A stretch of DNA of 64,000 bases, from the NCBI GenBank assembly GCA_963541275.1, contig CAUTSC010000001.1:329879-393878 (forward strand), written 5' to 3'. Made by a program: the position numbers and the translations under genes. Shown here piece by piece: positions 36,982 through 50,909 of the stretch. Within the stretch, counting starts at the first letter, position 1. Every line of letters starts with the position of its first letter. Below the pieces are notes generated by a model. The model made no database searches. It was not told the DNA's origin and saw only the letters and a program-made list of their open reading frames with translations. Source of the DNA: an uncultured Pseudomonadota bacterium (GTDB lineage: Bacteria > Pseudomonadota > Alphaproteobacteria > Rs-D84 > CACZYB01).

Positions 36982-37890
36982 TTATTTTCTATTATGTGGG
37001 TGGGTTTTAAGGTAGGTTTTGGTTATTTTTGTTAGGTCGCTTTTGGTATAGATTTGAGTTGTAGAAAGTGATGAGTGTCCCAACAATTCTTGGATAGTTC
37101 GTAGATCTGTTCCATTTTTTAAAAGCGTTGTTGCAAAGCTGTGTCTTAATGTGTGAGGTGTTGTGGTTTCTTTAAATCCGTTCAGCTCTCGTGCATTTTT
37201 TATGGTTCTTTGTGCTATACGTGGGGATAATCTTGCTCCCATTGTTCCACGAAATAATGGAGAATTTGGTTTAAAATTAAAAGGTGCAATTTTTAAATAG
37301 TCATTTATTGCTGTTTTTACAATTGGCAATATTGGAACAATTCTGGTTTTATTTCCTTTTCCTGTTATTCGTAAAAAATCATTTTCTATATCAATAATAT
37401 TTAAATTTAATGCTTCACTTATTCTTAAACCTGTTGAATAAATAAGTGTGAAAAGGGCTATGTTTAATTTTGCTTGCCATTTTTGTTTGAATATTTGATT
37501 AAAGCTATTCAGCAAAGTTATAACATCTTCATTTTCAAGTACGCTTGCAATTTTTTTTGTTTGTTTTGGTGATTTCAAAATTAAAATAGCAGAATTATTT
37601 GCAATATTGTTTATTTGTAAATATTTAAAAAAGGTTTTAAGACTGCTGATATTTCTTGCTATTGTTTTGTTTGTTTTATTGTTGGTTGCAAGGTTTGTTA
37701 TAAAGCTCCTAAATTCGGCAATAGTTATGTTTTCTAAAACTTTTTTATCTGTTGTTTGTTTGTTTAGATCATTTTGTAAAAACTTGATGAAAGTTTGTAA
37801 ATCACGTTTGTAATTTGATATAGTATTTTGTGATAATCTTTTTTCAGTTTGTAAAAAAACTAGCCAATCATTTAAAATTTTCTTTATCAT
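36982..37890 (-). CDS. tyrosine recombinase XerC/XerD
   Basis: A C-terminal catalytic box, HTLRHSFATTLLKNGTDLRTIQELLGHSSLSTTQIYT, and an N-terminal SAM-like domain. Confidence 0.85.
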   Translation of the reverse strand: MIKKILNDWLVFLQTEKRLSQNTISNYKRDLQTFIKFLQNDLNKQTTDKKVLENITIAEFRSFITNLATNNKTNKTIARNISSLKTFFKYLQINNIANNSAILILKSPKQTKKIASVLENEDVITLLNSFNQIFKQKWQAKLNIALFTLIYSTGLRISEALNLNIIDIENDFLRITGKGNKTRIVPILPIVKTAINDYLKIAPFNFKPNSPLFRGTMGARLSPRIAQRTIKNARELNGFKETTTPHTLRHSFATTLLKNGTDLRTIQELLGHSSLSTTQIYTKSDLTKITKTYLKTHPHNRK

Positions 37891-39908: not shown

Positions 39909-41642
39909 TTATTCAACTCTTACAGCAGGTGGTCTTACACAATAAACACAAGTTAGTTTTTTATTAAATAACATCCATGAAGTATTCGATGGACAACATC
40001 TTTCTTTTGCTCCATTTATTGATGCAAGTGGTGGCAATTTATTATTGCACCATTTTGTATAACATTGACCATCAATTAAAACTTGGTATTCTGTGGAACA
40101 ACCTTTTGGAAAACATTTTCCCATATTTGTTTGGCTGCAATTACCAATAGTGATATTTGTTATATCCATTCCACAAGAATGCTTTTGTCTTTCAGATGTT
40201 ATTTTGCAAGCATTGTTATAAGAATTGGAATCACAATTAAAACAATTCCATACTCTGGTCGTTTTATTATATGAAAGTCCCCAATTATTTTCATTAAAAG
40301 TTCCTCCCTTGATTTTATCAATTTGTTCAGGAGTACAATTTGAAAAACAACTTTCTATTTTTTTATCATTTTTCTTTTTGTCTTTATCACCTATCAATTC
40401 ATCTATAAGAGTAGAATTCAGATCTTTAAATTCTGGATAAGGTTTGCATTGCCATTTTTTATCTTTAAATTCTGTTGTTTCACAAACAGAACAATTTTCA
40501 ATTGCGTTGGAATTTTTTTTGTATGCAAGTTCGCATATTGGTTTATTCATTGATGCTTGTCCACTTTTTACAATTTCTCCATCTGTTTCTTTATCTATAT
40601 TCTTAACACCTAAATATCTATAGTCGCCTTGGCTTTTCTTCTTACATTCTTCTATATATTTTTCTTTATTGTGTACGCAATAAAATTTATTTGATTTATA
40701 TTTTGGGAACCAAGCATCTGTAATTGACAGCTCTGTAAAAATATTCTTGCCCTTGTCATCATTAAAAATCATAAATCCATTTTTATTTTGGCAAAATTCT
40801 GTTCCATCAGAGCAAGTATAAAATCTTGTTTGTGAGTTCCAAACCGTTTTTTGTGGAGCGGTACAACCAATAGAAACAGATTCTTTTGCACAGCAATATT
40901 TATACTCGGAGATCTTGGTACAATTTTCTTTACCTTTTGCTTCACTTGCTGTGTATTCATTTTCGTGGTTGGTACAAGGTTTTACATTAGAAGCGTTAAC
41001 ACATTTAAAAGTATTATCCGCTTGTTTTAAAGCATATTCACCTTCTTTACACTTATAAAGAGTATTTATGTTTGAAAGTTCTTGTTGTTTTATACAAGAA
41101 ACAAGACCTATTCCTATTACTTGTTCTTTATCATTTGCTGGTGTTGGTTTATTATCTGGCATAATAACATATTTACCATCTGCTTTATTTTCATTATCTT
41201 TTAATATAAACAGACCTTTTTGTAAGATCTGGGATGTAAGATACATATCTTTTTTATTTAAAATTTTCCAAGTGGTAGTTGAAAGACAATGTTCACTAAC
41301 ATCTGGTGAAATTTGATCATTTTGTTTACATTCAACATTATCACCTGCAGTATTTATACAATATTTTTTTATGGATATATTTTCATCACCTTGGCAAGAA
41401 AAAGATTTATTATTTGTGATGATTGCTTTTAAATCTTCTTGATATTCATATGCTGTACTATTAGCAAGAGATGTTCTGTCGTTTGTGAATGCTTTTTCAT
41501 GAAATTGTTTTATACAATTTATATTTGCATTTAACAATAATTCTTGTTTATCAAGCTTTGTATTGCTGTCTGTTCTTTTTGAAACAAAATATTGATAAGA
41601 TGCAAGCATCAAACCCATTATAAGTATAATAAAAATATTCAC
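39909..41642 (-). CDS. large Cys-rich secreted/surface protein (hypothetical; about 50 Cys in 577 aa)
   Basis: An N-terminal signal/anchor, MNIFIILIMGLMLASYQYF, and no recognisable enzymatic motif. Confidence 0.45.
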   Translation of the reverse strand: MNIFIILIMGLMLASYQYFVSKRTDSNTKLDKQELLLNANINCIKQFHEKAFTNDRTSLANSTAYEYQEDLKAIITNNKSFSCQGDENISIKKYCINTAGDNVECKQNDQISPDVSEHCLSTTTWKILNKKDMYLTSQILQKGLFILKDNENKADGKYVIMPDNKPTPANDKEQVIGIGLVSCIKQQELSNINTLYKCKEGEYALKQADNTFKCVNASNVKPCTNHENEYTASEAKGKENCTKISEYKYCCAKESVSIGCTAPQKTVWNSQTRFYTCSDGTEFCQNKNGFMIFNDDKGKNIFTELSITDAWFPKYKSNKFYCVHNKEKYIEECKKKSQGDYRYLGVKNIDKETDGEIVKSGQASMNKPICELAYKKNSNAIENCSVCETTEFKDKKWQCKPYPEFKDLNSTLIDELIGDKDKKKNDKKIESCFSNCTPEQIDKIKGGTFNENNWGLSYNKTTRVWNCFNCDSNSYNNACKITSERQKHSCGMDITNITIGNCSQTNMGKCFPKGCSTEYQVLIDGQCYTKWCNNKLPPLASINGAKERCCPSNTSWMLFNKKLTCVYCVRPPAVRVE

Positions 41643-42765: not shown

Positions 42766-42841
42766 GGGTGATTAGCTCAGTCGGTAGAGCAACTGACTTT
42801 TAATCAGTGGGTCACAGGTTCGAATCCTGTATCACCCACCA
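42766..42841 (+). tRNA. tRNA-Lys (anticodon TTT)
   Basis: GGGTGATTAGCTCAGTCGGTAGAGCAACTGACTTTTAATCAGTGGGTCACAGGTTCGAATCCTGTATCACCCACCA folds into a cloverleaf, with anticodon loop CTTTTAA and an encoded CCA. Confidence 0.9.
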
Positions 42842-43070
42842 TTTTTTTTTGTATGTAAAATCAATAACTTGCAATGTTTTAATACTTTTAGAATTTTATC
42901 TATAAAAACTCCGTTGCCTAATTTAAAAACAATAAAATTAATTATCACAGCTTTTGTTAAAAGCTTTAATTAGAAACTTTTTTTCAAATATTAATAAAAA
43001 AATCTTGATATTAAAAGTAAGTTTTGTTATACTATTCATACGAATCATACTTGAACCTAGAGGAGAAAAA

Positions 43071-43295
43071 ATGAAACACCCAGAGGGAAAATACGCTTGG
43101 ACTGTTAAGGTAGGAGAAAAGGGTCAGTTTGTTATACCAAAAGAAGCCCGTGATGTTTTTAATATTAAACCTGGTGATACTTTAATAGTTCTTGCAGATA
43201 TAAATAAAGGGATTGCCATTCCACCTAAACATGAGTTTGCATATTTGATGGATACTATTTTCAATCAAAATACAAAAGAGGAGGACAAAGAATGA
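43071..43295 (+). CDS. AbrB/MazE/SpoVT-family DNA-binding protein
   Basis: MKHPEGKYAWTVKVGEKGQFVIPKEARDVFNIKPGDTLIVL is a swapped-hairpin AbrB-like domain. An AGGAG RBS and a TTGATA-17-TATACT promoter lie upstream. The track start 42954 is rejected. Confidence 0.65.
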   Translation: MKHPEGKYAWTVKVGEKGQFVIPKEARDVFNIKPGDTLIVLADINKGIAIPPKHEFAYLMDTIFNQNTKEEDKE

Positions 43296-44017
43296 ATGCT
43301 ATTATCATAAAAAATCTTACAAAAAAATATGGAAATGTGCTTGCAGTAAATAATCTTAATTTGACTATTAAAGCGGGAGAATTATTTGCTTTGCTTGGTG
43401 TAAATGGTGCAGGAAAAACCACGACAATTAAAATGTTATCTTGCCTTATAAAACCAACAAGTGGTGATGCTTTTCTTCTTGGAGATAGTATTATCTCAAA
43501 TCTGCATGCAATAAAAGAAAAAATCAATATTTCACCACAAGAAACGGCAATAGCCGCAAATTTATCAGTACTGGAAAATTTAAAACTTATCGCTGGAATA
43601 TACGGACAAGATGACAAAATAGCAAATAACAATGCTTATGAAATAGCAGAAAAATTTGGTTTGAAAAATGAATTAAATAAAAGGGCTAAAAATTTATCTG
43701 GTGGAATGCAACGTCGTCTTGCTATTGCTATGGCTTTGATTTCCAAACCTAAAATTTTATTTTTGGATGAACCTACACTGGGAATTGATGTCTTGGCTAG
43801 GCGTGAATTGTGGGCTTCTATCAAATCATTAAAAGGAAAAATTACAATAATTCTTACCACTCATTATATGGATGAGGTTGAAAATTTATCTGATCGCGTG
43901 GGGATAATGGCTGCTGGAAAATTGATTGCCGTTGGAACTGTGGCAGAGTTAACCAAACAAACAGGTACTTTGAAATTAGAAGATGTTTTTGTTGCTCTTG
44001 TAGGAGGTGTGATATGA
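43292..44017 (+). CDS. ABC transporter ATP-binding protein
   Basis: Walker A GVNGAGKTT, signature LSGGMQRRL and Walker B ILFLDEPT. It overlaps the upstream gene by 4 nt. Confidence 0.85.
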   Translation: MNAIIIKNLTKKYGNVLAVNNLNLTIKAGELFALLGVNGAGKTTTIKMLSCLIKPTSGDAFLLGDSIISNLHAIKEKINISPQETAIAANLSVLENLKLIAGIYGQDDKIANNNAYEIAEKFGLKNELNKRAKNLSGGMQRRLAIAMALISKPKILFLDEPTLGIDVLARRELWASIKSLKGKITIILTTHYMDEVENLSDRVGIMAAGKLIAVGTVAELTKQTGTLKLEDVFVALVGGVI

Positions 44018-44763
44018 GAATGTTTTTATTTGCAAAACGTAATATAAAAGAAATTTTACGTGATCCTGTAAATCTTTTTTTTAGTCTCGGTTTCCCGCTT
44101 GTTTTATTGGTTTTGTTATCTATTATCAATGCTGCTATTCCACCAGAGGTAAAAAATACTATGTTTCAAATAAAAAATCTTGCACCAGGTCTTGCAATGT
44201 TTGGTAGTGTGTTTATGGCATTATTTGCAGGTATGTTGTTATCAAAAGATAGGACATCATCTTTTTTGATGCGTTTGTTTACATCTCCAATGACTGCAAA
44301 GGATTTTATTTTGGGCTATACTTTGCCTATGATAGTTATGACAATAATGCAAGCAACAATAACATTATTGGTGGCTGGATTTTTTGGATTTGATATAAAT
44401 GTCAATATTATTTTTGCAATTATTATGACAGCATTAAGTTCATTGTTTTTTATCGGTACAGGTTTATTTTTTGGAAGTATTTTGAATGATAAAGCGGTCA
44501 GTGGTGTTTGTGGAGCGTTATTAACCAATATTGCAGGTTGGTTGTCTGGAGTTTTTATTCCTGTTGATTTAATAGGGGGTACTTTTAAAACAATAACACA
44601 TATGTTGCCATTTTATCACAGCGTTGAAGTAATAAGAATAAGTTTAAGTGGCAATTTCAATTCTATTTTTACTCATTTGATTATTGTTGTGGGATATATA
44701 GTTGTTATTTTCACCCTTGCCATCATGACTTTCAATCGCAAAATGACCGGTGAAAAAGAGTAA
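44014..44763 (+). CDS. ABC-2 type transporter permease
   Basis: Six TM segments, and it overlaps the ATPase stop. Confidence 0.7.
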   Translation: MRMFLFAKRNIKEILRDPVNLFFSLGFPLVLLVLLSIINAAIPPEVKNTMFQIKNLAPGLAMFGSVFMALFAGMLLSKDRTSSFLMRLFTSPMTAKDFILGYTLPMIVMTIMQATITLLVAGFFGFDINVNIIFAIIMTALSSLFFIGTGLFFGSILNDKAVSGVCGALLTNIAGWLSGVFIPVDLIGGTFKTITHMLPFYHSVEVIRISLSGNFNSIFTHLIIVVGYIVVIFTLAIMTFNRKMTGEKE

Positions 44764-44790
44764 AATTAACACCCTAGTAATCAATAAGAA

Positions 44791-45903
44791 TTGTTTCACA
44801 AGTTTGTAAGGATATACTTTGCTCTGTCCCGTTTTTATCTAATATTTTTTTATTGCATTCTACTTTATATCCACATACACTTTTATAAAATACAGGAGAG
44901 AGAGATGAGAAATAGTTTAGAAAAAATCACAACTGATAAAAATGTAGTTGAAAAATTGTATGATGGTGCGCACATCTCTATGGAAACAAGACAAATGTTG
45001 CTTGATTTATTGTATCCAAACGACAAGTTGGGGTTGTGGGTTTCAAGGATTTTGATGTTGCTTGGACTTGTTCTTACTTTTACAGGAGTTATTTACTTTT
45101 TTGCTTTTAATTGGGTCAAACTTACACCTAGCACAAAATTTGCTTTAATAGAGACAGCAATGTATTGTTGTTTAGCGTTTGCAAACAGAGTGAAAAAGGA
45201 AAATGTCAGTAAAATTTTTTTATTATCAGCAAGTATTTTTGTTGGTATATTTATGGCTGTGTTTGGTCAAATATATCAAACTGGGGCAAACGCATATGAA
45301 CTTTTTCTTAATTGGTCAGCACTTATTTTTATTTGGACTATTATATCAAAATACGCTCCACAATGGATATTGTGGCTTCTTATTACAAACATAAGTTTTA
45401 TATTATGGTGGCAACAATCTGGATATGCTGGAAAAATATATTGGATGATTTATACATACCTTATACTATTTGATGGATTTTTTCTTGCTTTAAGAGAATT
45501 TTTAGCAAACAAAAAACATTATGAATTTTTAAAAGCAGAGTGGACAAGAGAATTTATTTTTGTGCCTGTTTCTATTATGGTATCTATTCCTATTATAGTT
45601 TGGATTCTTGATTGGGACAAAGCTGCTATTTCTTGGATGATAAGTGGAATAGTTGGAATAATAACCTATAGCATAATGTTTTATGTTTATCGTTATAAAT
45701 TATGTGATATAAAATCCATAGCATCCATTGTTTTATCAAGTTGTGTTATATTTGATACTTTTATTTATAAGCTGCTGGATATGTTTATAAAAGATAGAGT
45801 ATTGTTAATGTTTTTAATGTCTATTGCTACACTTATTATCTGTGTTTTTGGAGTAAATTACATAACAACAATAATGAAAAGAAAGGAATTTAAAAATGCT
45901 TAA
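44791..45903 (+). CDS. DUF2157-like integral membrane protein
   Basis: It is polytopic. The short cytoplasmic N-domain is MRNSLEKITTDKNVVEKLYDGAHISMETRQMLLDL. It is the first of the conserved DUF2157/DUF4401/GDYXXLXY triad. The true start may be 44906. Confidence 0.5.
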   Translation: MFHKFVRIYFALSRFYLIFFYCILLYIHIHFYKIQEREMRNSLEKITTDKNVVEKLYDGAHISMETRQMLLDLLYPNDKLGLWVSRILMLLGLVLTFTGVIYFFAFNWVKLTPSTKFALIETAMYCCLAFANRVKKENVSKIFLLSASIFVGIFMAVFGQIYQTGANAYELFLNWSALIFIWTIISKYAPQWILWLLITNISFILWWQQSGYAGKIYWMIYTYLILFDGFFLALREFLANKKHYEFLKAEWTREFIFVPVSIMVSIPIIVWILDWDKAAISWMISGIVGIITYSIMFYVYRYKLCDIKSIASIVLSSCVIFDTFIYKLLDMFIKDRVLLMFLMSIATLIICVFGVNYITTIMKRKEFKNA

Positions 45904-46981
45904 AAAAATAAATATAAAAAATGCTTTTCTTTTATTTGAATTTTTAAAAAGTAAAAAATTATTAAAAAATGAAAAACTAGCACAAAAAACCATTATTGTA
46001 AAAGAAGATGAAAAAGTGCAAGCTTATACAAAAGGTTTCCTTGGATTTGGTGCATTTTTAACTGCACTTTGCATAATGGGAATTTTGCATACAATAAATT
46101 TAGTAAGTTATAATAATACTATAGAGCTTTTTATTTGGGGACTACTATTTATTGTTTTTGCCATTTTATTTAAAAGATCCGCAGGTGATGATAAAGCTAC
46201 AAAAGAATATAGTTTTATAATACAACTTTCATTTGCATTCATGTTTATTGGAAAGTTTTATTTTGTTTGGGGATTTACAGATTTGATTGATACTGATGAG
46301 CCGCCTTATGCAGGATTATTGCTTGCAACTTTGTTGACTTATAATACATATAAAATGCCAGGGGACAGATTTTTATCAACGTTTATAACTTTGATGGCTA
46401 TGTTAATTTCTATAAAAAAAGCATGGATATATAATGTGTTTTTCTTATTCCAGCTTATGATTACGGGATTTTTATTAACAAACAAAAAATTAAAATCAGA
46501 TTATATGCCACTTGCAAAAGCTTTTGTCATGTCGTTTGCAATAACTACTTGGTGGCTAGTTGGAAATCCAGCAAACAGATATTGGGAAATTGGGCAATTA
46601 GGGAATTTATATTTTATAAAAATATCATTGGTGATTAGTTTTATTATGCTATTTTTTACAATTCCAAAAGATATAAAAAAAATAAAAATGGAACCTTTTT
46701 TACTTGCATCTGTTTTATCAATACTACTTGGTATTATTCCAGGAATTTTGCTTGGTATTATTTTAATGTTGCTTGGTTATTTAAAACATGAAAAATTTCT
46801 TATAAGTGTTGGAGGAATTTTCATTCCAATATGCTTATTTACTTTTTATTATAATCTGGATATTACACTTATGACAAAATCAATAATTCTTATTATAAAT
46901 GGAATTGTTTTGATACTGGGAAGTTTTTACATGAAACACAAAGGATGGGATAAAGGAGAAAATTTATGCATAAAAAAATAA
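45896..46981 (+). CDS. DUF4401-like integral membrane protein
   Basis: It has 10 or more TM segments and overlaps its neighbours on both sides. Confidence 0.45.
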   Translation: MLKKINIKNAFLLFEFLKSKKLLKNEKLAQKTIIVKEDEKVQAYTKGFLGFGAFLTALCIMGILHTINLVSYNNTIELFIWGLLFIVFAILFKRSAGDDKATKEYSFIIQLSFAFMFIGKFYFVWGFTDLIDTDEPPYAGLLLATLLTYNTYKMPGDRFLSTFITLMAMLISIKKAWIYNVFFLFQLMITGFLLTNKKLKSDYMPLAKAFVMSFAITTWWLVGNPANRYWEIGQLGNLYFIKISLVISFIMLFFTIPKDIKKIKMEPFLLASVLSILLGIIPGILLGIILMLLGYLKHEKFLISVGGIFIPICLFTFYYNLDITLMTKSIILIINGIVLILGSFYMKHKGWDKGENLCIKK

Positions 46982-47466
46982 TGATGTGGTGGGGATTTTT
47001 TATTATTTTATTTTTTAATTATAATATTTATAAAAAAGAGCAAATAAAGAAAAGCAAAGATATTGTTTTATTGGAACTTGCACCTGTGGATCCAAGATCC
47101 TTGATGCAAGGTGATTATATGAGATTAAATTATGCAATAACAAATGACAGCAAAATTAAACTTAATTTAAAATCAAGAAAAGATGGTAAAATAGTTATTG
47201 CTCCAGATAAAAATAATGTGGCACAATTTATAAAAATTTATGAAGGAGAACAGTTAAAAGCAGGAGAAAAATTATTATCCTATTACAGAAATTATCACAG
47301 AATTAAAATTGTTCCAAATAGTTTTATGTTTCAAGAAGGACACGGAAAATTCTATGATAAAGCAAAATATGCAATATTTAAATTTAACTCAGATGGAAAA
47401 TATTTATTAACTGGTCTTGCCGATAAAGATGGAAAAGAAATAATTCCAACGGATAACAGCAAATAA
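46966..47466 (+). CDS. GDYXXLXY-motif protein
   Basis: An N-terminal TM anchor, then ...DPRSLMQGDYMRLNYAITND..., which matches GDYxxLxY exactly. Confidence 0.7.
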   Translation: MHKKIMMWWGFFIILFFNYNIYKKEQIKKSKDIVLLELAPVDPRSLMQGDYMRLNYAITNDSKIKLNLKSRKDGKIVIAPDKNNVAQFIKIYEGEQLKAGEKLLSYYRNYHRIKIVPNSFMFQEGHGKFYDKAKYAIFKFNSDGKYLLTGLADKDGKEIIPTDNSK

Positions 47467-47471
47467 AAATT

Positions 47472-48200
47472 TTATCTAGTTTTTGTTAGCTTATATCTTG
47501 CAAGTACATTTACCATATCACTATGTAAAACTTGCCTAGTTATTTTTTGTTGTTCAGTTATTAATTTTGCAAGAAGTATTTTTTTTGCGATATGAGCGAT
47601 TTTAGCATTCTTATTTTCTTTTAACTTATCTTGATTTATTTTTTCTTCATCATAAAAGTTAACAAGTAAGTAAGGATTCTCTTTACTTCTAAAATCAATA
47701 ACGAAAGGAGCAAAACCTTGATTAACAAGGAGAGCATTTGCAACTAAAACAGCAGTTTTTTTATTATCATAATCAAAAAATTGGGACTTTGCTATATCTA
47801 AACACAATTCTAACTCTCTTATACCAACATTTTTACTAGATTTATAATCGTTAGACAAGTCCATAAACACATTTGATAATTGATAAACTTTATATCCTGT
47901 CCATTTTGTTCTATCAATTGTAATATTCCTTTCTCTAAATTTCCATGCAGTTGCCCTATTATACATAGAAACCATACAATGTATTTTACAAACTTCATCT
48001 TGAGATAGAAAAAATTTATTTTTCAAAACTTTTTCAATAATATATTCTTTTACTTGTTCTATTAAATTTTCCTTTTCCTTTCCTTCACCAAAAGAAAGAA
48101 TTTTGGAAAACTCCTTAAAATCTTGCAATGTTTTTACAGCTTTATTTTTACCTATTTTTAATAATTTTTCTTCTGTTTCAATTATATTCATACTTTTCAA
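47472..48200 (-). CDS. hypothetical protein with degenerate Fic/Doc-like core
   Basis: QFFDYDNKKTAVLVANALLVNQGFAPFVI aligns with the Fic core HPFxDGNGRTARLLxNxxLxxxGYPPxxI, but lacks the catalytic His and GNGR. Confidence 0.3.
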   Translation of the reverse strand: MKSMNIIETEEKLLKIGKNKAVKTLQDFKEFSKILSFGEGKEKENLIEQVKEYIIEKVLKNKFFLSQDEVCKIHCMVSMYNRATAWKFRERNITIDRTKWTGYKVYQLSNVFMDLSNDYKSSKNVGIRELELCLDIAKSQFFDYDNKKTAVLVANALLVNQGFAPFVIDFRSKENPYLLVNFYDEEKINQDKLKENKNAKIAHIAKKILLAKLITEQQKITRQVLHSDMVNVLARYKLTKTR

Positions 48201-48356
48201 TCCTTAAAATATGGGAAAGATAAAAAATATTTTACCTAAAATCAATAAGAATTTGCCTTATAGTATTGAAATTATAAAAATAATTACTATATAAAAGAAA
48301 ATTGACATATATATTATGTTTTGATAGTTTATTTTTATATCAAAGGAAATTTTATC

Positions 48357-50909
48357 ATGAATGAAATAATAGCAGATTCTAAGACAGAAATAGTTGAAGA
48401 TATTATTATTAAAGAGCAAGATAATAATCAAACTTACCCTCAAGAAAAGGTGAATTATTGTTTATTACCACTTCGTGATTTGGTTGTATTTCCTGGTATG
48501 GTTATTCCAATTTTTGTTGGTCGTGGCAAATCAATTGCAACAATACAAGAAGCAATGAAAAGAAATAAAGAAATTGTTCTTGTCGCTCAAAAAGATTCCA
48601 ATGTTAATTTCCCAAAAGAAACAGATTTATTTACAATTGGTGTAAAAGCAAACATTGTTCAAATGGTAAGATTGCAAGATAATACCGTGAAAATATTGGT
48701 AGAGGCAAAATATAAAGTAAAAATTTCAGATTTTGTAAATTCTAAACCTTTTTGGGAGGTTATGGCAGAAACTATTCCAGAAATAAAAGATAATTGGGTG
48801 GAAGAAGAGATTGAACCACTTTTAAAATCAGTAAGACACAGCTTTATAAGATATTTAAAATTAAACAGAGATTTTTTTATAGATAACATTTCTGGTATAG
48901 ATAAAATCACAAATCCAATTATATTGATAGATACCATTATAATGGGTATGAATGTAAAAATTGAAAAAAAACAAGAAGTTTTAGAAACCAATACATTAAA
49001 AGAAAAATTGGAAAAACTTTATTTAATGATAGAAACAGAACTTGATTTTTTAAAAATGGACAGAAAAATCAGACAAAAAGTTAAAAAAAATATAGATAAG
49101 ACACAAAAAGATTTTTATTTGCAAGAACAAATGAAAGTAATAAGAAAAGAATTGGGTGATGATGAAAACGAATATGAAGATGTTGAAAGTTATAAATCAA
49201 AAATTGAAAAGGCGGGATTATCAAAGGAGGCATATGTAAAGGCAAAAGCAGAAGTTAAAAAATTATCCAATATCTCATCTCATTATCCAGAATACAATTT
49301 AATTTGTAATTGGCTTGATACAATTTTGGAACTTCCTTGGAAAAAATCAACCGAGCTTACAACAACTTTACTAGAGGCAGAAAAAAAATTAAATCAAGCT
49401 CATTATGGACTTGAAAAAATAAAGGACAGAATACTTGAATTTTTGGCAGTTCAAAAAAGGGTAGGTACAAACAAAGGAACAATACTTTGTTTTATGGGAC
49501 CTCCTGGGGTTGGTAAAACATCTCTTGGTCGTGCAATAGCAACAAGTACAGGCAGAGTTTTTGAAAAAATATCTCTTGGTGGTGTATATGATGAAGCAGA
49601 AATCAGGGGACATAGAAAAACGTATATTGGTGCAATGTGTGGAAAAATTATTTCAACAATCAAAAAAGCAGGTGTAAATAATCCTATAATAATGCTTGAT
49701 GAAATTGACAAATTAAGTTCAAACTTTCATGGTGATCCAGCAAGTGCATTATTGGAAGTTTTGGATCCTGAACAAAATACTAATTTTAACGATCATTATT
49801 TAGATTTAGATTTTGATCTTTCAAATGTGATGTTTATTGCAACATCAAATTCATATAATATTCCAAGACCTTTACTAGATCGTATGGAAGTTATTGAAAT
49901 TTCTGGTTATACAGAAAATGAAAAAATTGAAATAACAAAACAACACATAATTCCAAAATTATTTACAAAAAATGGAATAAGTAAAGATGAATTGCTAATA
50001 AAAGATAGCGCAATCACAGATATAATAAGATATTATACAAAAGAATCTGGTGTTCGTGGTCTTGAAAGAGCAATAGATAAGTTAATCCGTAAAGTAATAA
50101 GAAAGATAGTAGAAAATGAAAAACCAGATGATAGTTCTTTATTTTCATTAACAGCAGAAAAAAGTGAAGAAGCGAAAGAAAAAGATAAAGTTATAATCAC
50201 AACGGAAAATTTAAAAGATTATTTGGGTGTTCCAAGATTTGATTTCGGTAAAATTGAAAAACAAGATTCCGTTGGTACAATAACAGGTCTTGCATGGACG
50301 GAAGTTGGTGGTGAATTATTATCAATTGAATCTGTTGTTATGGCTGGAACTGGTAAATCTGTATTTACTGGAAAACTTGGTGATGTAATGAAAGAATCAA
50401 TTGAAACAGCAAAATCTTTTGTAAGAAGTAAATCAACAGAATTTGGTATTAACCCAGAAATATGGGATAAAATTGACATACATATACATGTGCCAGAGGG
50501 GGCAACTCCAAAGGATGGACCATCCGCTGGTCTTGCTATGATGACATCTATTGTTTCAACTCTTACAAATATTCCTGTACATAAGGATGTTGCAATGACT
50601 GGTGAAATAACTCTTCGTGGAAATGCTCTTACAATTGGTGGTTTAAAAGAAAAACTGCTTGCTGCAATTCGTGGTGGTATAAAAACAGTTATAATTCCAC
50701 AAGATAATGTAAAAGATTTAGAGGAAATGCCAGAAATAATTGGAAAATCTTTAAACATAATTCCTGTTTCAACTGCAATGGAAGTTTTAAAAATTGCCCT
50801 TATAAAAGATTTTACTCCTATTGAAACAAACGGAGATTTTTTTGAAAATATCTTACAAGCATCTAAACTAAAAGAAGAAAGAATGTTTGGACTTCGTTCT
50901 ATGTCCTAA
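48357..50909 (+). CDS. lon: ATP-dependent Lon protease
   Basis: A LON N-domain, an AAA+ Walker A (GPPGVGKTS), and the protease Ser-Lys dyad (PKDGPSAGLAM...K). The start is chosen at MNEIIADSK. Confidence 0.95.
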   Translation: MNEIIADSKTEIVEDIIIKEQDNNQTYPQEKVNYCLLPLRDLVVFPGMVIPIFVGRGKSIATIQEAMKRNKEIVLVAQKDSNVNFPKETDLFTIGVKANIVQMVRLQDNTVKILVEAKYKVKISDFVNSKPFWEVMAETIPEIKDNWVEEEIEPLLKSVRHSFIRYLKLNRDFFIDNISGIDKITNPIILIDTIIMGMNVKIEKKQEVLETNTLKEKLEKLYLMIETELDFLKMDRKIRQKVKKNIDKTQKDFYLQEQMKVIRKELGDDENEYEDVESYKSKIEKAGLSKEAYVKAKAEVKKLSNISSHYPEYNLICNWLDTILELPWKKSTELTTTLLEAEKKLNQAHYGLEKIKDRILEFLAVQKRVGTNKGTILCFMGPPGVGKTSLGRAIATSTGRVFEKISLGGVYDEAEIRGHRKTYIGAMCGKIISTIKKAGVNNPIIMLDEIDKLSSNFHGDPASALLEVLDPEQNTNFNDHYLDLDFDLSNVMFIATSNSYNIPRPLLDRMEVIEISGYTENEKIEITKQHIIPKLFTKNGISKDELLIKDSAITDIIRYYTKESGVRGLERAIDKLIRKVIRKIVENEKPDDSSLFSLTAEKSEEAKEKDKVIITTENLKDYLGVPRFDFGKIEKQDSVGTITGLAWTEVGGELLSIESVVMAGTGKSVFTGKLGDVMKESIETAKSFVRSKSTEFGINPEIWDKIDIHIHVPEGATPKDGPSAGLAMMTSIVSTLTNIPVHKDVAMTGEITLRGNALTIGGLKEKLLAAIRGGIKTVIIPQDNVKDLEEMPEIIGKSLNIIPVSTAMEVLKIALIKDFTPIETNGDFFENILQASKLKEERMFGLRSMS

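Follow-up and report, generated by a model that had tools for sequence, protein, structure and literature searches.

The six genes downstream of tRNA-Lys in this genome form, with a probability that we put at roughly 85%, two independent three-gene modules that adjoin each other and not one functional six-gene system. Module A encodes an AbrB-like protein, an ABC ATPase and an ABC-2 permease, and appears to be a horizontally mobile efflux cassette. Module B is the DUF2157-DUF4401-GDYXXLXY triad, which is distributed independently of module A.

Gene content of the region

In the stretch of DNA that was analysed (64 kb, hereafter the window), all six open reading frames of the region lie on the plus strand and match Pfam families above the curated cut-offs (Table 1), in agreement with the DUF2157, DUF4401 and GDYXXLXY assignments of the first-pass annotation. 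That annotation had placed overlapping or abutting genes immediately after tRNA-Lys. The tRNA gene and the six reading frames are present, but the AbrB-like gene starts 229 nt past the tRNA (the cassette lies 160 nt downstream of it) and a 141-nt spacer separates the third gene from the fourth. The overlaps were described correctly: the ATPase start overlaps the AbrB-like stop, and the permease start the ATPase stop, each by 4 nt in an ATGA junction (43295/43292 and 44017/44014), and DUF4401 overlaps DUF2157 by 8 nt and GDYXXLXY by 16 nt. Overlapping triad reading frames are also seen in the called genes of relatives.

Table 1. Features of the tRNA-Lys region, in coordinates of the window
Feature	Position	Strand	Remarks
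tRNA-Lys, anticodon UUU	42766..42841	+	ARAGORN; left edge of variable spot, outside both modules
Module A, putative mobile cassette (1.76 kb): promoter, operator-like repeats, AbrB-like, ABC ATPase, ABC-2 permease	43003..44769	+	blastn
Cassette promoter	43005..43033	+	-35 TTGATA, 17-nt spacer with TG, -10 TATACT
Candidate operator	43027..43050	+	TTATAC-TAT-TCATAC-GAA-TCATAC, three hexamers at 9-bp spacing
AbrB/MazE/SpoVT-type small DNA-binding protein, 74 aa	43071..43295	+	PF04014, 40.5 bits vs. cut-off 24.7
ABC ATPase, DrrA/ABCA-like class, 241 aa	43292..44017	+	PF00005, E 5e-33
ABC-2 type permease	44014..44763	+	PF01061, 93.9 bits vs. cut-off 26.9; E 1e-26
Spacer between modules A and B, 141 nt	44764..44904	+
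Module B, DUF2157-DUF4401-GDYXXLXY triad	44905..47466	+
Triad gene 1, DUF2157 polytopic membrane protein, 332 aa	44905..45903	+	PF09925, E 1e-21
Triad gene 2, DUF4401 polytopic membrane protein, 361 aa	45896..46981	+	PF14351, E 2e-31
Triad gene 3, GDYXXLXY membrane-anchored protein, 166 aa	46966..47466	+	PF14345, E 5e-31

The N-terminal 43 residues of the AbrB-like protein are the part that matches PF04014 and also TIGR01439 (51.1 bits vs. a cut-off of 28.3). The protein is 56% identical to a homologue on an S. xylosus plasmid and 74% identical to one of C. felsineum, and both homologues are followed by ABC and ABC-2 genes. The best NCBIfam match of the ATPase is the DrrA subfamily, with a score under its cut-off; by sequence, its best matches in the PDB are ATPase domains of ABCA1/3/4/7, and it shares 61% identity with the copy on the S. 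xylosus plasmid. The permease shares 79-93% identity with 29 of 31 metagenome homologues, 63-66% with the other two, and 45-48% with homologues on plasmids, which occur together with AbrB, TetR or LytTR regulators. ATPase and permease, translationally coupled to the AbrB-like gene, would form a DrrAB/ABCA-like exporter of the ABC-2 class (type V). Judged by its families and its genomic company, it would most likely pump out a toxic small molecule or peptide.

Promoter and candidate operator of the cassette

Promoter-like hexamer pairs occur at chance level in this AT-rich region (36 found vs. 38.9 expected). The promoter TTGATA-17-TATACT that the first-pass annotation had noted before the AbrB-like gene was found, and what makes it credible is its conservation in about 30 homologous cassettes rather than its score; in cassettes from eight other genomic contexts it is kept as TTGACA-17-TATACT. 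The Shine-Dalgarno sequence noted with it, GGAG, precedes the ATG at 43071. The candidate operator overlaps the -10 hexamer and the likely transcription start. Its exact TCATAC-N3-TCATAC element occurs once in the window, at the cassette promoter, and is absent upstream of the triad. In 26 cassette loci this element sits shortly before the AbrB-like gene, as it also does in C. felsineum (L086) and Ilyobacter (L088); in Ilyobacter, the gene that follows this regulator and operator encodes a CoA-disulfide reductase.

Because a conserved tandem TCATAC repeat sits on its promoter, the AbrB-like protein is plausibly the autoregulator of the cassette. The proposal that this small swapped-hairpin protein regulates itself thus gains from the presence of the repeats on the promoter of nearly every cassette copy. 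In the proposed mechanism, the repeats would cover the -10 and +1 region of a sigma-70 promoter, and the AbrB/MazE-fold protein would presumably bind them and repress its own operon.

Spread of the cassette and its border with the triad

Module A recurs as a block in about 30 metagenome contigs (L089-L119) at 80-83% nucleotide identity (blastn), with the AbrB-like, ATPase and permease genes all together. The matches begin at 42999-43036 and finish at 44757-44769, so that they extend from the -35 hexamer until a few bases after the stop codon of the permease gene. The copies lie in at least eight unrelated contexts with a flank GC of 0.27 to 0.58, where their own GC stays at about 0.34; over the loci compared, cassette GC is 0.33-0.41 whatever that of the flanks (0.20-0.58). 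Their neighbours include genes for a T4SS coupling protein, a MobA/MobL relaxase and an IS110 transposase. The AbrB-ABC-ABC-2 arrangement is also found on plasmids of S. xylosus, C. felsineum and C. acetobutylicum, beside IS257, IS3 and Tn3 elements. The copy in the window has a GC content of 0.321 (vs. 0.281 ± 0.028 for the window) and a GC3 of 0.20-0.24 (vs. 0.18), a mild deviation, which ranks only within the top 8% of windows. Its borders show neither an integrase nor inverted repeats nor a target duplication.

None of the 31 cassette loci contained a homologue of the triad, MltG or Lon, and the distant Staphylococcus/Clostridium plasmid copies are also without a triad. Furthermore, no AbrB or ABC-2 permease homologue was found within 8 kb of the triad in about 81-82 loci. 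Presence or absence of the cassette was compared with one close relative, a 5.8-kb contig (L120). It is 94.3% identical over 44911-48534, which spans the triad and the genes downstream; an unrelated 690-aa gene stands upstream of its triad and the cassette is absent. The homology borders, at 44757-44769 for the cassette copies and from 44911 for L120, hence fall between the modules. The cassette would have entered this genome at a variable site that lies between tRNA-Lys and the triad.

The spacer sequence is absent from the other cassette copies and from L120. It holds no terminator-like site and no stable fold (z = +1.3), a weak promoter-like match lies at 44864-44891, and AGGAGAGAG is found just upstream of the ATG at 44905. 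As there is no terminator between the modules, cassette transcripts may run on into the triad as a by-product, and the lack of a terminator-like site or stable hairpin in the spacer makes co-transcription of all six genes plausible, and so their co-regulation in this strain possible.

Conservation and architecture of the triad

Of 74 species-representative loci with enough flank, from many phyla, 73 have the complete triad with its gene order unchanged, and the papers searched that name DUF2157, DUF4401 or GDYXXLXY give no function, so the first-pass description of a conserved triad without an assigned function stands. An exhaustive search matched DUF4401 to 493 clusters (50% identity) at E <= 1e-3. 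Natural DUF2157-DUF4401 and DUF4401-GDYXXLXY fusions occur, both in gene order and confirmed with Pfam; a fused two-gene form is present in Pantoea, Ewingella, F. vincentii and A. baumannii. Among 72 immediate upstream or downstream neighbours no Pfam family appeared more than three times, and the triad is not linked to tRNA-Lys in 60 other loci. Its codon usage is typical (z -0.2 to +1.1).

The DUF2157 protein with its start at 44905 is an exact sequence in a public collection. About 8-10 helices are predicted for it, and the family has two invariant intramembrane polar motifs, FFFAYNW and GQxYQTGAD. It shows weak N-terminal similarity to DUF4401 (hhalign probability 61%), for which the predicted structure has a pLDDT of 47.8, too low to be of use. 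The GDYXXLXY protein consists of an N-terminal transmembrane helix and a beta-rich domain; the GDYMRLNY motif seen earlier is present at residues 49-56 (47110-47133), and its predicted structure (pLDDT 88) has no neighbour in the PDB. Most likely, the three products assemble into one cytoplasmic-membrane complex, in which two polytopic subunits with invariant intramembrane polar residues would be joined by a single-pass subunit displaying the highly conserved beta-rich domain. Judged from this architecture alone, our best guess for the role of the triad is transport, or else some membrane machinery associated with the envelope.

Alternative explanations

The first-pass annotation had joined the triad functionally to the ABC-2 exporter and the AbrB-like autoregulator, in one operon for export, resistance or envelope remodelling. 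All six genes share a strand, only one conserved promoter is evident, and a spacer without terminator or stable structure makes read-through likely. Nevertheless, we consider one functional operon unlikely: linkage is missing in both directions (0/82 triad loci and 0/31 cassette loci), so that the recurrent ABC-2 linkage which the first-pass annotation proposed to look for was not found, and the neighbour census gives the triad no recurrent partner. The 94%-identical relative keeps the triad without the cassette, the homology border lies exactly between the modules, and the operator-like repeat is confined to the cassette promoter. The triad and the ABC-2 pump are probably not partners. A single island integrated at tRNA-Lys (42842-47466), also put forward earlier, is very unlikely. 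The tRNA gene adjoins, the spot upstream of the triad varies between close relatives, and homologues of the first three genes are carried by conjugative elements and plasmids; a tRNA-linked island would hold for these three alone, and loosely. The triad, however, has native codon usage, is syntenic with L120 together with the genes downstream at 94% identity, and lies away from tRNA-Lys in the 60 other loci. There is no integrase beside the tRNA, and the nearest tyrosine recombinase, a XerC/D-like one at 36982-37890, is separated from it by RlmE, a Cys-rich ORF and MltG. A repeat of the tRNA 3' end, suggested as island boundary, was found nowhere in the window with up to three mismatches allowed.

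The most improbable reading is that the AbrB/MazE-like protein is the antitoxin, and the ATPase the AAA_21/AbiEii-like toxin, of a toxin-antitoxin or abortive-infection pair. Pfam names PF04014 'MazE_antitoxin', and the ATPase also matches PF13304 (AAA_21) and generic PADLOC ATPase models, e.g. mad3 and AriA. However, it scores far better as ABC_tran and DrrA-like, has ABCA ATPase domains as best PDB matches, and is always translationally coupled to the ABC-2 permease. The same permease family pairs elsewhere with TetR or LytTR regulators, the Ilyobacter regulator and operator precede a reductase, and neither the AbrB-like protein nor the permease has a PADLOC match.

Comparison with known systems

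Like DrrAB-type ABC-2 (type V) exporters with a small repressor of their own, of which daunorubicin-resistance DrrAB and the NodIJ-like pumps are examples, the cassette encodes a separate ATPase of ~240 aa with Walker A, ABC signature and Walker B, translationally coupled to a separate permease of ~250 aa (PF01061), and like many resistance pumps it is carried on mobile elements. Its best NCBIfam matches are DrrA and NodJ/DrrB, but every score falls short of its curated cut-off, which means that the cassette pump is no equivalog of any named pump. In addition, the C-terminal extension of DrrA is missing from the ATPase (241 aa vs. a profile of 302 positions), and the regulator is AbrB-type instead of TetR, GntR or MerR. 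Like AbrB/MazE/SpoVT proteins, this regulator is small, its gene opens the operon, and repeats of a hexamer lie across its own promoter. In contrast to MazE-type antitoxins it has no toxin partner, and in contrast to B. subtilis AbrB it is not a global transition-state regulator; it would form a portable unit with the candidate operator, with ABC-2 pumps or the Ilyobacter CoA-disulfide reductase as cargo. The cassette resembles tRNA-linked genomic islands in lying downstream of a tRNA gene in a spot that varies between close relatives, but it has no integrase or att direct repeat, its compositional shift is mild, and only 1.76 kb are foreign.

LptF-LptG-LptC is one of several membrane complexes of two polytopic subunits and one single-pass beta-domain subunit. 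By analogy only, the triad comprises two polytopic proteins of ~330-360 aa and one transmembrane-helix/beta-rich protein of ~165 aa, encoded together and sometimes fused. Unlike the Lpt complex, it has no ATPase conserved beside it, and none of the solved structures, those of Lpt proteins included, matched it in sequence or fold. The Pfam DUF2157 model has been unified with the LiaI/LiaF transmembrane domain of the Lia/phage-shock envelope-stress system, and PF09925 is assigned to the N-terminal transmembrane helices of LiaF (PMC11237479). The DUF2157 protein of the window matches PF09925 as LiaF does, but the triad protein is much larger than LiaI/LiaF, with ~8-10 predicted helices and its own motifs, and in the neighbour census no PspA/LiaH, LiaRS or Toastrack-domain genes were recurrent beside the triad. 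A stress-sensing role is only a lead.

Because the 94%-identical relative has a different gene upstream of its triad, the cassette is strain-specific cargo of this genome and the triad is resident. The cassette would be a resistance or immunity determinant if its exporter removes a toxic small molecule or peptide, and the triad is an ancient, self-contained and widespread cassette.

Organization of the gene cluster

The window is AT-rich (28% GC), and the six genes that follow the tRNA-Lys gene lie among housekeeping genes. RlmE, a Cys-rich ORF and MltG are found upstream, and a convergent ORF, Lon, a LolC/E-like gene and Pgi downstream. All six ORFs are intact and belong to the families named in the first-pass annotation, each above the Pfam curated cut-off. 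That annotation had also described the six genes as overlapping or abutting. This holds for two ATGA junctions with an overlap of 4 nt each and for the DUF4401 gene, which overlaps the DUF2157 and GDYXXLXY genes by 8 and 16 nt, respectively, but a spacer of 141 nt parts the third gene from the fourth. The six genes thus form two blocks of three: a cassette, consisting of an AbrB-like gene, an ABC ATPase and an ABC-2 permease with their promoter, and a triad of membrane protein genes (DUF2157, DUF4401 and GDYXXLXY).

The Cys-rich ORF between RlmE and MltG encodes 577 aa with an N-terminal hydrophobic segment and had no match in Pfam or NCBIfam. The stop codon of the convergent ORF (242 aa) lies 5 nt from that of the GDYXXLXY gene, and its product had no match in Pfam, NCBIfam or PADLOC. 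In L120, a contig of a close relative (Logan run DRR582173), gene calling gives two ORFs (111 and 136 aa) in the homologous region, and either of the two copies may be disrupted.

Coordinates of the gene cluster, its control elements and neighbouring features
Feature	Position	Strand	Family or remark
Tyrosine recombinase	36982-37890	-	N-terminal SAM-like domain typical of XerC/XerD
Cys-rich ORF	39909-41642	-
tRNA-Lys(UUU)	42766-42841
Cassette promoter	43005-43033		TTGATA-17-TATACT
Exact TCATAC-N3-TCATAC	43036-50
AbrB/MazE-like gene	43071-43295	+	PF04014, above curated cut-off
ABC ATPase	43292-44017	+	PF00005
ATPase/permease overlap	44014-44017		ATGA
ABC-2 permease	44014-44763	+	PF01061
Spacer	44764-44904
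Weak promoter-like match	44864-44891		chance level
DUF2157 gene	44905-45903	+	PF09925
DUF4401 gene	45896-46981	+	PF14351
GDYXXLXY gene	46966-47466	+	PF14345
Convergent ORF	47472-48200	-

The cassette is found in unrelated genetic contexts

When plasmids were searched with the permease (tblastn), homologues at 45-48% identity were found together with three different regulator types: TetR on a Chloroflexota plasmid, LytTR plus DUF3021 in B. tropicus, and an AbrB-like protein on a Staphylococcus xylosus plasmid, beside IS257 and a rep gene. Regulator and ATPase of the S. xylosus plasmid are 56% and 61% identical to their counterparts in the window. A search with the AbrB-like protein led to Clostridium felsineum megaplasmids, with a copy at 74% identity, and to C. 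acetobutylicum pSOL1, with one at 53%. In both cases an ABC ATPase and an ABC-2 permease come next, and IS3 or Tn3 transposases adjoin.

Furthermore, a metagenome scan with the permease yielded 31 loci; amino-acid identity is 79-93% in 29 of these and 63-66% in the other two. The three cassette genes occur together in nearly all of these loci, and none of the 31 contains the triad, MltG or Lon. The DNA of the window is 80-83% identical to that of the cassette loci, and the match is confined to a segment that starts at 42999-43036 and ends at 44757-44769, corresponding to the -35 hexamer and a point just past the permease stop codon. The loci fall into at least eight groups with unrelated flanks; the GC content of the cassette is about 0.34 throughout and that of the flanks ranges from 0.27 to 0.58. 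Among the flanking genes we found those encoding a type IV secretion (T4SS) coupling protein, a MobA/MobL relaxase, an IS110 transposase, a MerR/TipAS regulator and a two-component system. In three cassette loci (L111, L116 and L117) the ATPase or permease is split into two ORFs; such decaying copies would fit a dispensable cargo.

In the window itself, the GC content of the cassette is 0.321 (top 8% of windows) compared to 0.281 +/- 0.028 overall. The cassette also has somewhat more GC at third codon positions and a slightly poorer codon fit, with ATPase and permease at a log-likelihood z of about -0.9 to -1.2. Our literature search on AbrB, ABC and conjugative transposons returned nothing specific to the cassette.

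The cassette encodes a predicted efflux pump and its putative regulator

The ATPase matches PF00005 (E 5e-33), and its translation contains the Walker A, signature and Walker B motifs (GVNGAGKTT, LSGGMQRR and ILFLDEPT). The permease is a separate protein (PF01061, 93.9 bits versus a cut-off of 26.9). No equivalence to a named pump such as DrrAB, NodIJ or NatAB was found, as all NCBIfam models scored below their curated cut-offs: DrrA reached 257.8 bits versus 312.45 for the ATPase, and NodJ and DrrB reached 45 versus 206.65 and 32 versus 223, respectively, for the permease. The ATPase is a member of the DrrA/ABCA class and the permease a generic ABC-2 protein. In PADLOC, neither the AbrB-like protein nor the permease matched a defence system, and the ATPase matched only generic ATPase models. 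The protein family and the company of mobile elements and alternative drug-type regulators favour efflux of a toxic compound or peptide as the most likely predicted role of the cassette.

The AbrB-like protein carries a swapped-hairpin N-terminal domain (PF04014, 40.5 versus 24.7 bits; TIGR01439, 51.1 versus 28.3). We considered whether it could be a MazE-type antitoxin and dropped a toxin-antitoxin reading: no cognate toxin (MazF/PemK, Doc or VapC) adjoins, the next genes being those of the ABC ATPase and ABC-2 permease. The same order of regulator, ATPase and permease is present in about 30 homologous loci.

A good promoter had been noted ahead of the AbrB-like gene, and both the hexamers and a downstream GGAG Shine-Dalgarno sequence are indeed present. 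However, promoter-like matches occur in this region at chance frequency (36 found versus 38.9 expected), so that the consensus score alone says little. We therefore rely on conservation: an alignment of the cassette 5' end from nine contexts and two plasmid relatives revealed a conserved TTGACA-17-TATACT promoter, followed directly by tandem TCATAC hexamers at 9-bp spacing. Across the 64-kb window there is a single exact TCATAC-N3-TCATAC sequence; together with a third, degenerate hexamer that covers the -10 element it occupies 43027-43050. The spacer before the triad lacks the motif. In 26 cassette loci a single copy precedes the AbrB-like gene, and the motif is present as well in two distant relatives, C. 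felsineum and Ilyobacter. The conserved repeats overlap the -10/+1 region of the cassette promoter, and the 74-aa swapped-hairpin protein would repress its own promoter through them. In Ilyobacter polytropus the same regulator and motif precede a CoA-disulfide reductase and not an ABC-2 pump. Regulator and repeat appear to be a portable unit.

The triad is widespread and conserved in gene order

The three triad proteins score well above the Pfam gathering thresholds (PF09925, 77.7 versus 32.4 bits; PF14351, 109.9 versus 30.4; PF14345, 108 versus 27). The GDYMRLNY motif reported earlier was located at residues 49-56 of the GDYXXLXY protein, and according to the alignments the window proteins carry the invariant residues of the family motifs (GDYxxLxY and FQEGH; FFAxNW and GQxYQTGA; YYxL...K). 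Homologues of the GDYXXLXY protein form 5979 clusters that are about 50% identical across phyla. The closest relatives among the matches listed were from a Midichloriaceae (58%) and a Legionellales (54%) metagenome-assembled genome.

Scanning one genome per GTDB species with a GDYXXLXY profile gave at least 534 loci. The best 80 of these were fetched, and their ORFs were searched with profiles made from the window proteins. They span Alpha-, Gamma- and Deltaproteobacteria, Bacteroidota, Fibrobacterota, Planctomycetota, Verrucomicrobiota, Chloroflexota and Elusimicrobia. The order DUF2157, DUF4401, GDYXXLXY on one strand was found in 73 of the 74 loci with enough upstream sequence; in the one remaining locus (L044) the middle position is taken by an ORF of matching size that the profile missed. 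In relatives the called genes overlap too, by the 8 nt seen in the window and by 4 to 16 nt.

In several cases the genes are naturally fused, in the order of the genes. Pfam confirmed DUF2157-DUF4401 fusions in P0247, P0253 and an Ewingella locus, and DUF4401-GDYXXLXY fusions in P0173, P0189, P0248 and locus L057. A two-gene form, in which a fused DUF2157-DUF4401 gene accompanies GDYXXLXY, is present on a Pantoea agglomerans megaplasmid, in A. baumannii (between ribB and panD) and in F. vincentii. Such fusions and two-gene forms are the pattern expected of subunits of a single complex. Several PLSDB records labelled 'plasmid' are chromosome-sized, and in A. baumannii VB1190 the membrane gene appears to be split in the assembly. 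One Gammaproteobacteria metagenome-assembled genome (L018:473-8459) has a tandem array of DUF4401, DUF2157, DUF4401, DUF4401, DUF2157 and DUF4401, followed by a single GDYXXLXY gene. In P0181 (628 aa), a protein from an exhaustive protein search, an N-terminal Rce1-like (CAAX/CPBP) intramembrane protease domain is fused to DUF4401 in the usual place of DUF2157; this single case is a possible functional lead.

Cassette and triad are two modules

The arrangement could be read as one operon, in which the triad is functionally joined to the ABC-2 exporter, as the first-pass annotation had proposed. The spacer is compatible with shared transcription: it contains no terminator-like site and no stable fold (z = +1.3), so cassette transcripts could run into the triad, which has its own ribosome-binding site. 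The distribution of the genes speaks against a functional connection, as linkage was seen in none of 82 triad loci and none of 31 cassette loci. Within 8 kb of the 82 triad loci we found no homologue of the AbrB-like protein or the ABC-2 permease, and ATPase homologues were scattered, generic ABC ATPases in 8 loci. No family occurred more than three times among the immediate neighbours (72 upstream and 72 downstream, scanned with Pfam), and MltG and Lon were never near the triad in the surveyed loci. Any co-transcription of cassette and triad would be a strain-specific accident of insertion and not evidence of shared function.

It had also been suggested that the whole cluster is an island acquired at tRNA-Lys. 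The tRNA gene does precede the cluster, but no integrase adjoins it, a search for a repeat of its 3' end found none in the window with up to three mismatches allowed, and direct repeats around the cluster were short AT-rich matches of chance quality only. We rejected a tRNA island comprising the whole cluster for the lack of an adjoining integrase and of the 3'-end repeat. A tRNA lies near the triad in 8 of 60 loci, and none is tRNA-Lys. The nearest recombinase is a XerC/D-like gene 5 kb upstream of the tRNA, beyond three other genes, and is probably a chromosome-dimer resolvase rather than an island integrase. In L120 the triad proteins are 91-94% identical to those of the window, and the DNA is 94.3% identical from position 44911, six bases into DUF2157, through 48534 in Lon. 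Upstream of 44911 the sequences are unrelated, and the cassette is absent immediately upstream of the triad. This indicates that the triad and the genes downstream are resident in the lineage, that the upstream spot is variable and that the cassette is cargo of this strain. The codon usage of the triad in the window is native. At the position of the cassette, L120 encodes a 690-aa protein (L120:3-2075) with a GHKL-ATPase-like N-terminus (DNGVGF motif) and a weak HSDR_N/PD-(D/E)xK-like, nuclease-like C-terminus. It looks like a defence-type gene, and its presence there points to an insertion hot spot ahead of the triad. The earlier observation was largely correct, and its interpretation was right only in part: a mobile, putatively self-regulated ABC-2 cassette with a predicted role in efflux lies beside a resident copy of a widespread triad, and both belong to known kinds.

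Possible function of the triad

In the GDYXXLXY protein D42, P43, R44, Q48, G49, D50, F122, Q123, E124 and G125 are conserved and H126 is nearly invariant, a pattern that suggests a ligand-binding or catalytic pocket. The FFFAYNW and GQxYQTGAD motifs conserved in DUF2157 lie within hydrophobic segments and suggest an intramembrane polar site. At their N-termini, DUF2157 and DUF4401 are weakly similar (hhalign probability 61%). None of the three families matched a PDB sequence in profile searches, and PADLOC gave no defence-system match for the triad. A word-index search for DUF4401 homologues returned one protein with a single sequence and four with a 112-sequence profile, and the AF2 model of DUF4401 was unusable (pLDDT 47.8). 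Literature searches under the DUF names, Pfam and COG numbers found no functional study.

One paper (PMC11237479) unifies the Pfam DUF2157 model with the transmembrane domain of LiaI/LiaF from envelope-stress systems. Membership of the triad in a Lia/Psp system was rejected, as no PspA, LiaRS or Toastrack neighbours were found. In Fusobacterium, a GDYXXLXY protein was recovered together with FtsX and EnvC in a co-purification of 16 proteins (PMC5915739) and was mildly induced in co-culture with P. gingivalis (PMC9848294). Judging from architecture only, our tentative view is that the three proteins form a membrane complex that takes part in transport or envelope maintenance. A bolder reading, which we hold to be doubtful, is that the triad is an undescribed three-subunit machine of the cytoplasmic membrane with a transport or envelope function and not a diverged known system, which here would also come under read-through from the cassette. 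This reading draws on the presence of the triad in at least 534 species-representative genomes from more than ten phyla, on a single-pass GDYXXLXY subunit whose beta-rich domain keeps about 50% identity between phyla and resembles no solved structure, and on a polytopic subunit with invariant intramembrane N/Q/Y/Q/T/D residues.

Separating the two modules removes a tempting but wrong functional link, since the ABC-2 pump and its regulator are uninformative on the role of the triad. The finding opens no route to triad function, but it does sharpen the case for one complex: the conserved order, overlapping frames and in-order fusions strengthen the view that the three proteins form a single obligate complex. 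It also names tractable hosts that carry the triad and are open to direct functional tests, among them Acinetobacter baumannii, Pantoea agglomerans, Shewanella and Fusobacterium. Moreover, a compact predicted efflux cassette of 1.76 kb is now defined with exact borders, its own regulator and a candidate operator. It circulates among unrelated bacteria on conjugative elements and plasmids and is therefore worth testing as a resistance determinant.
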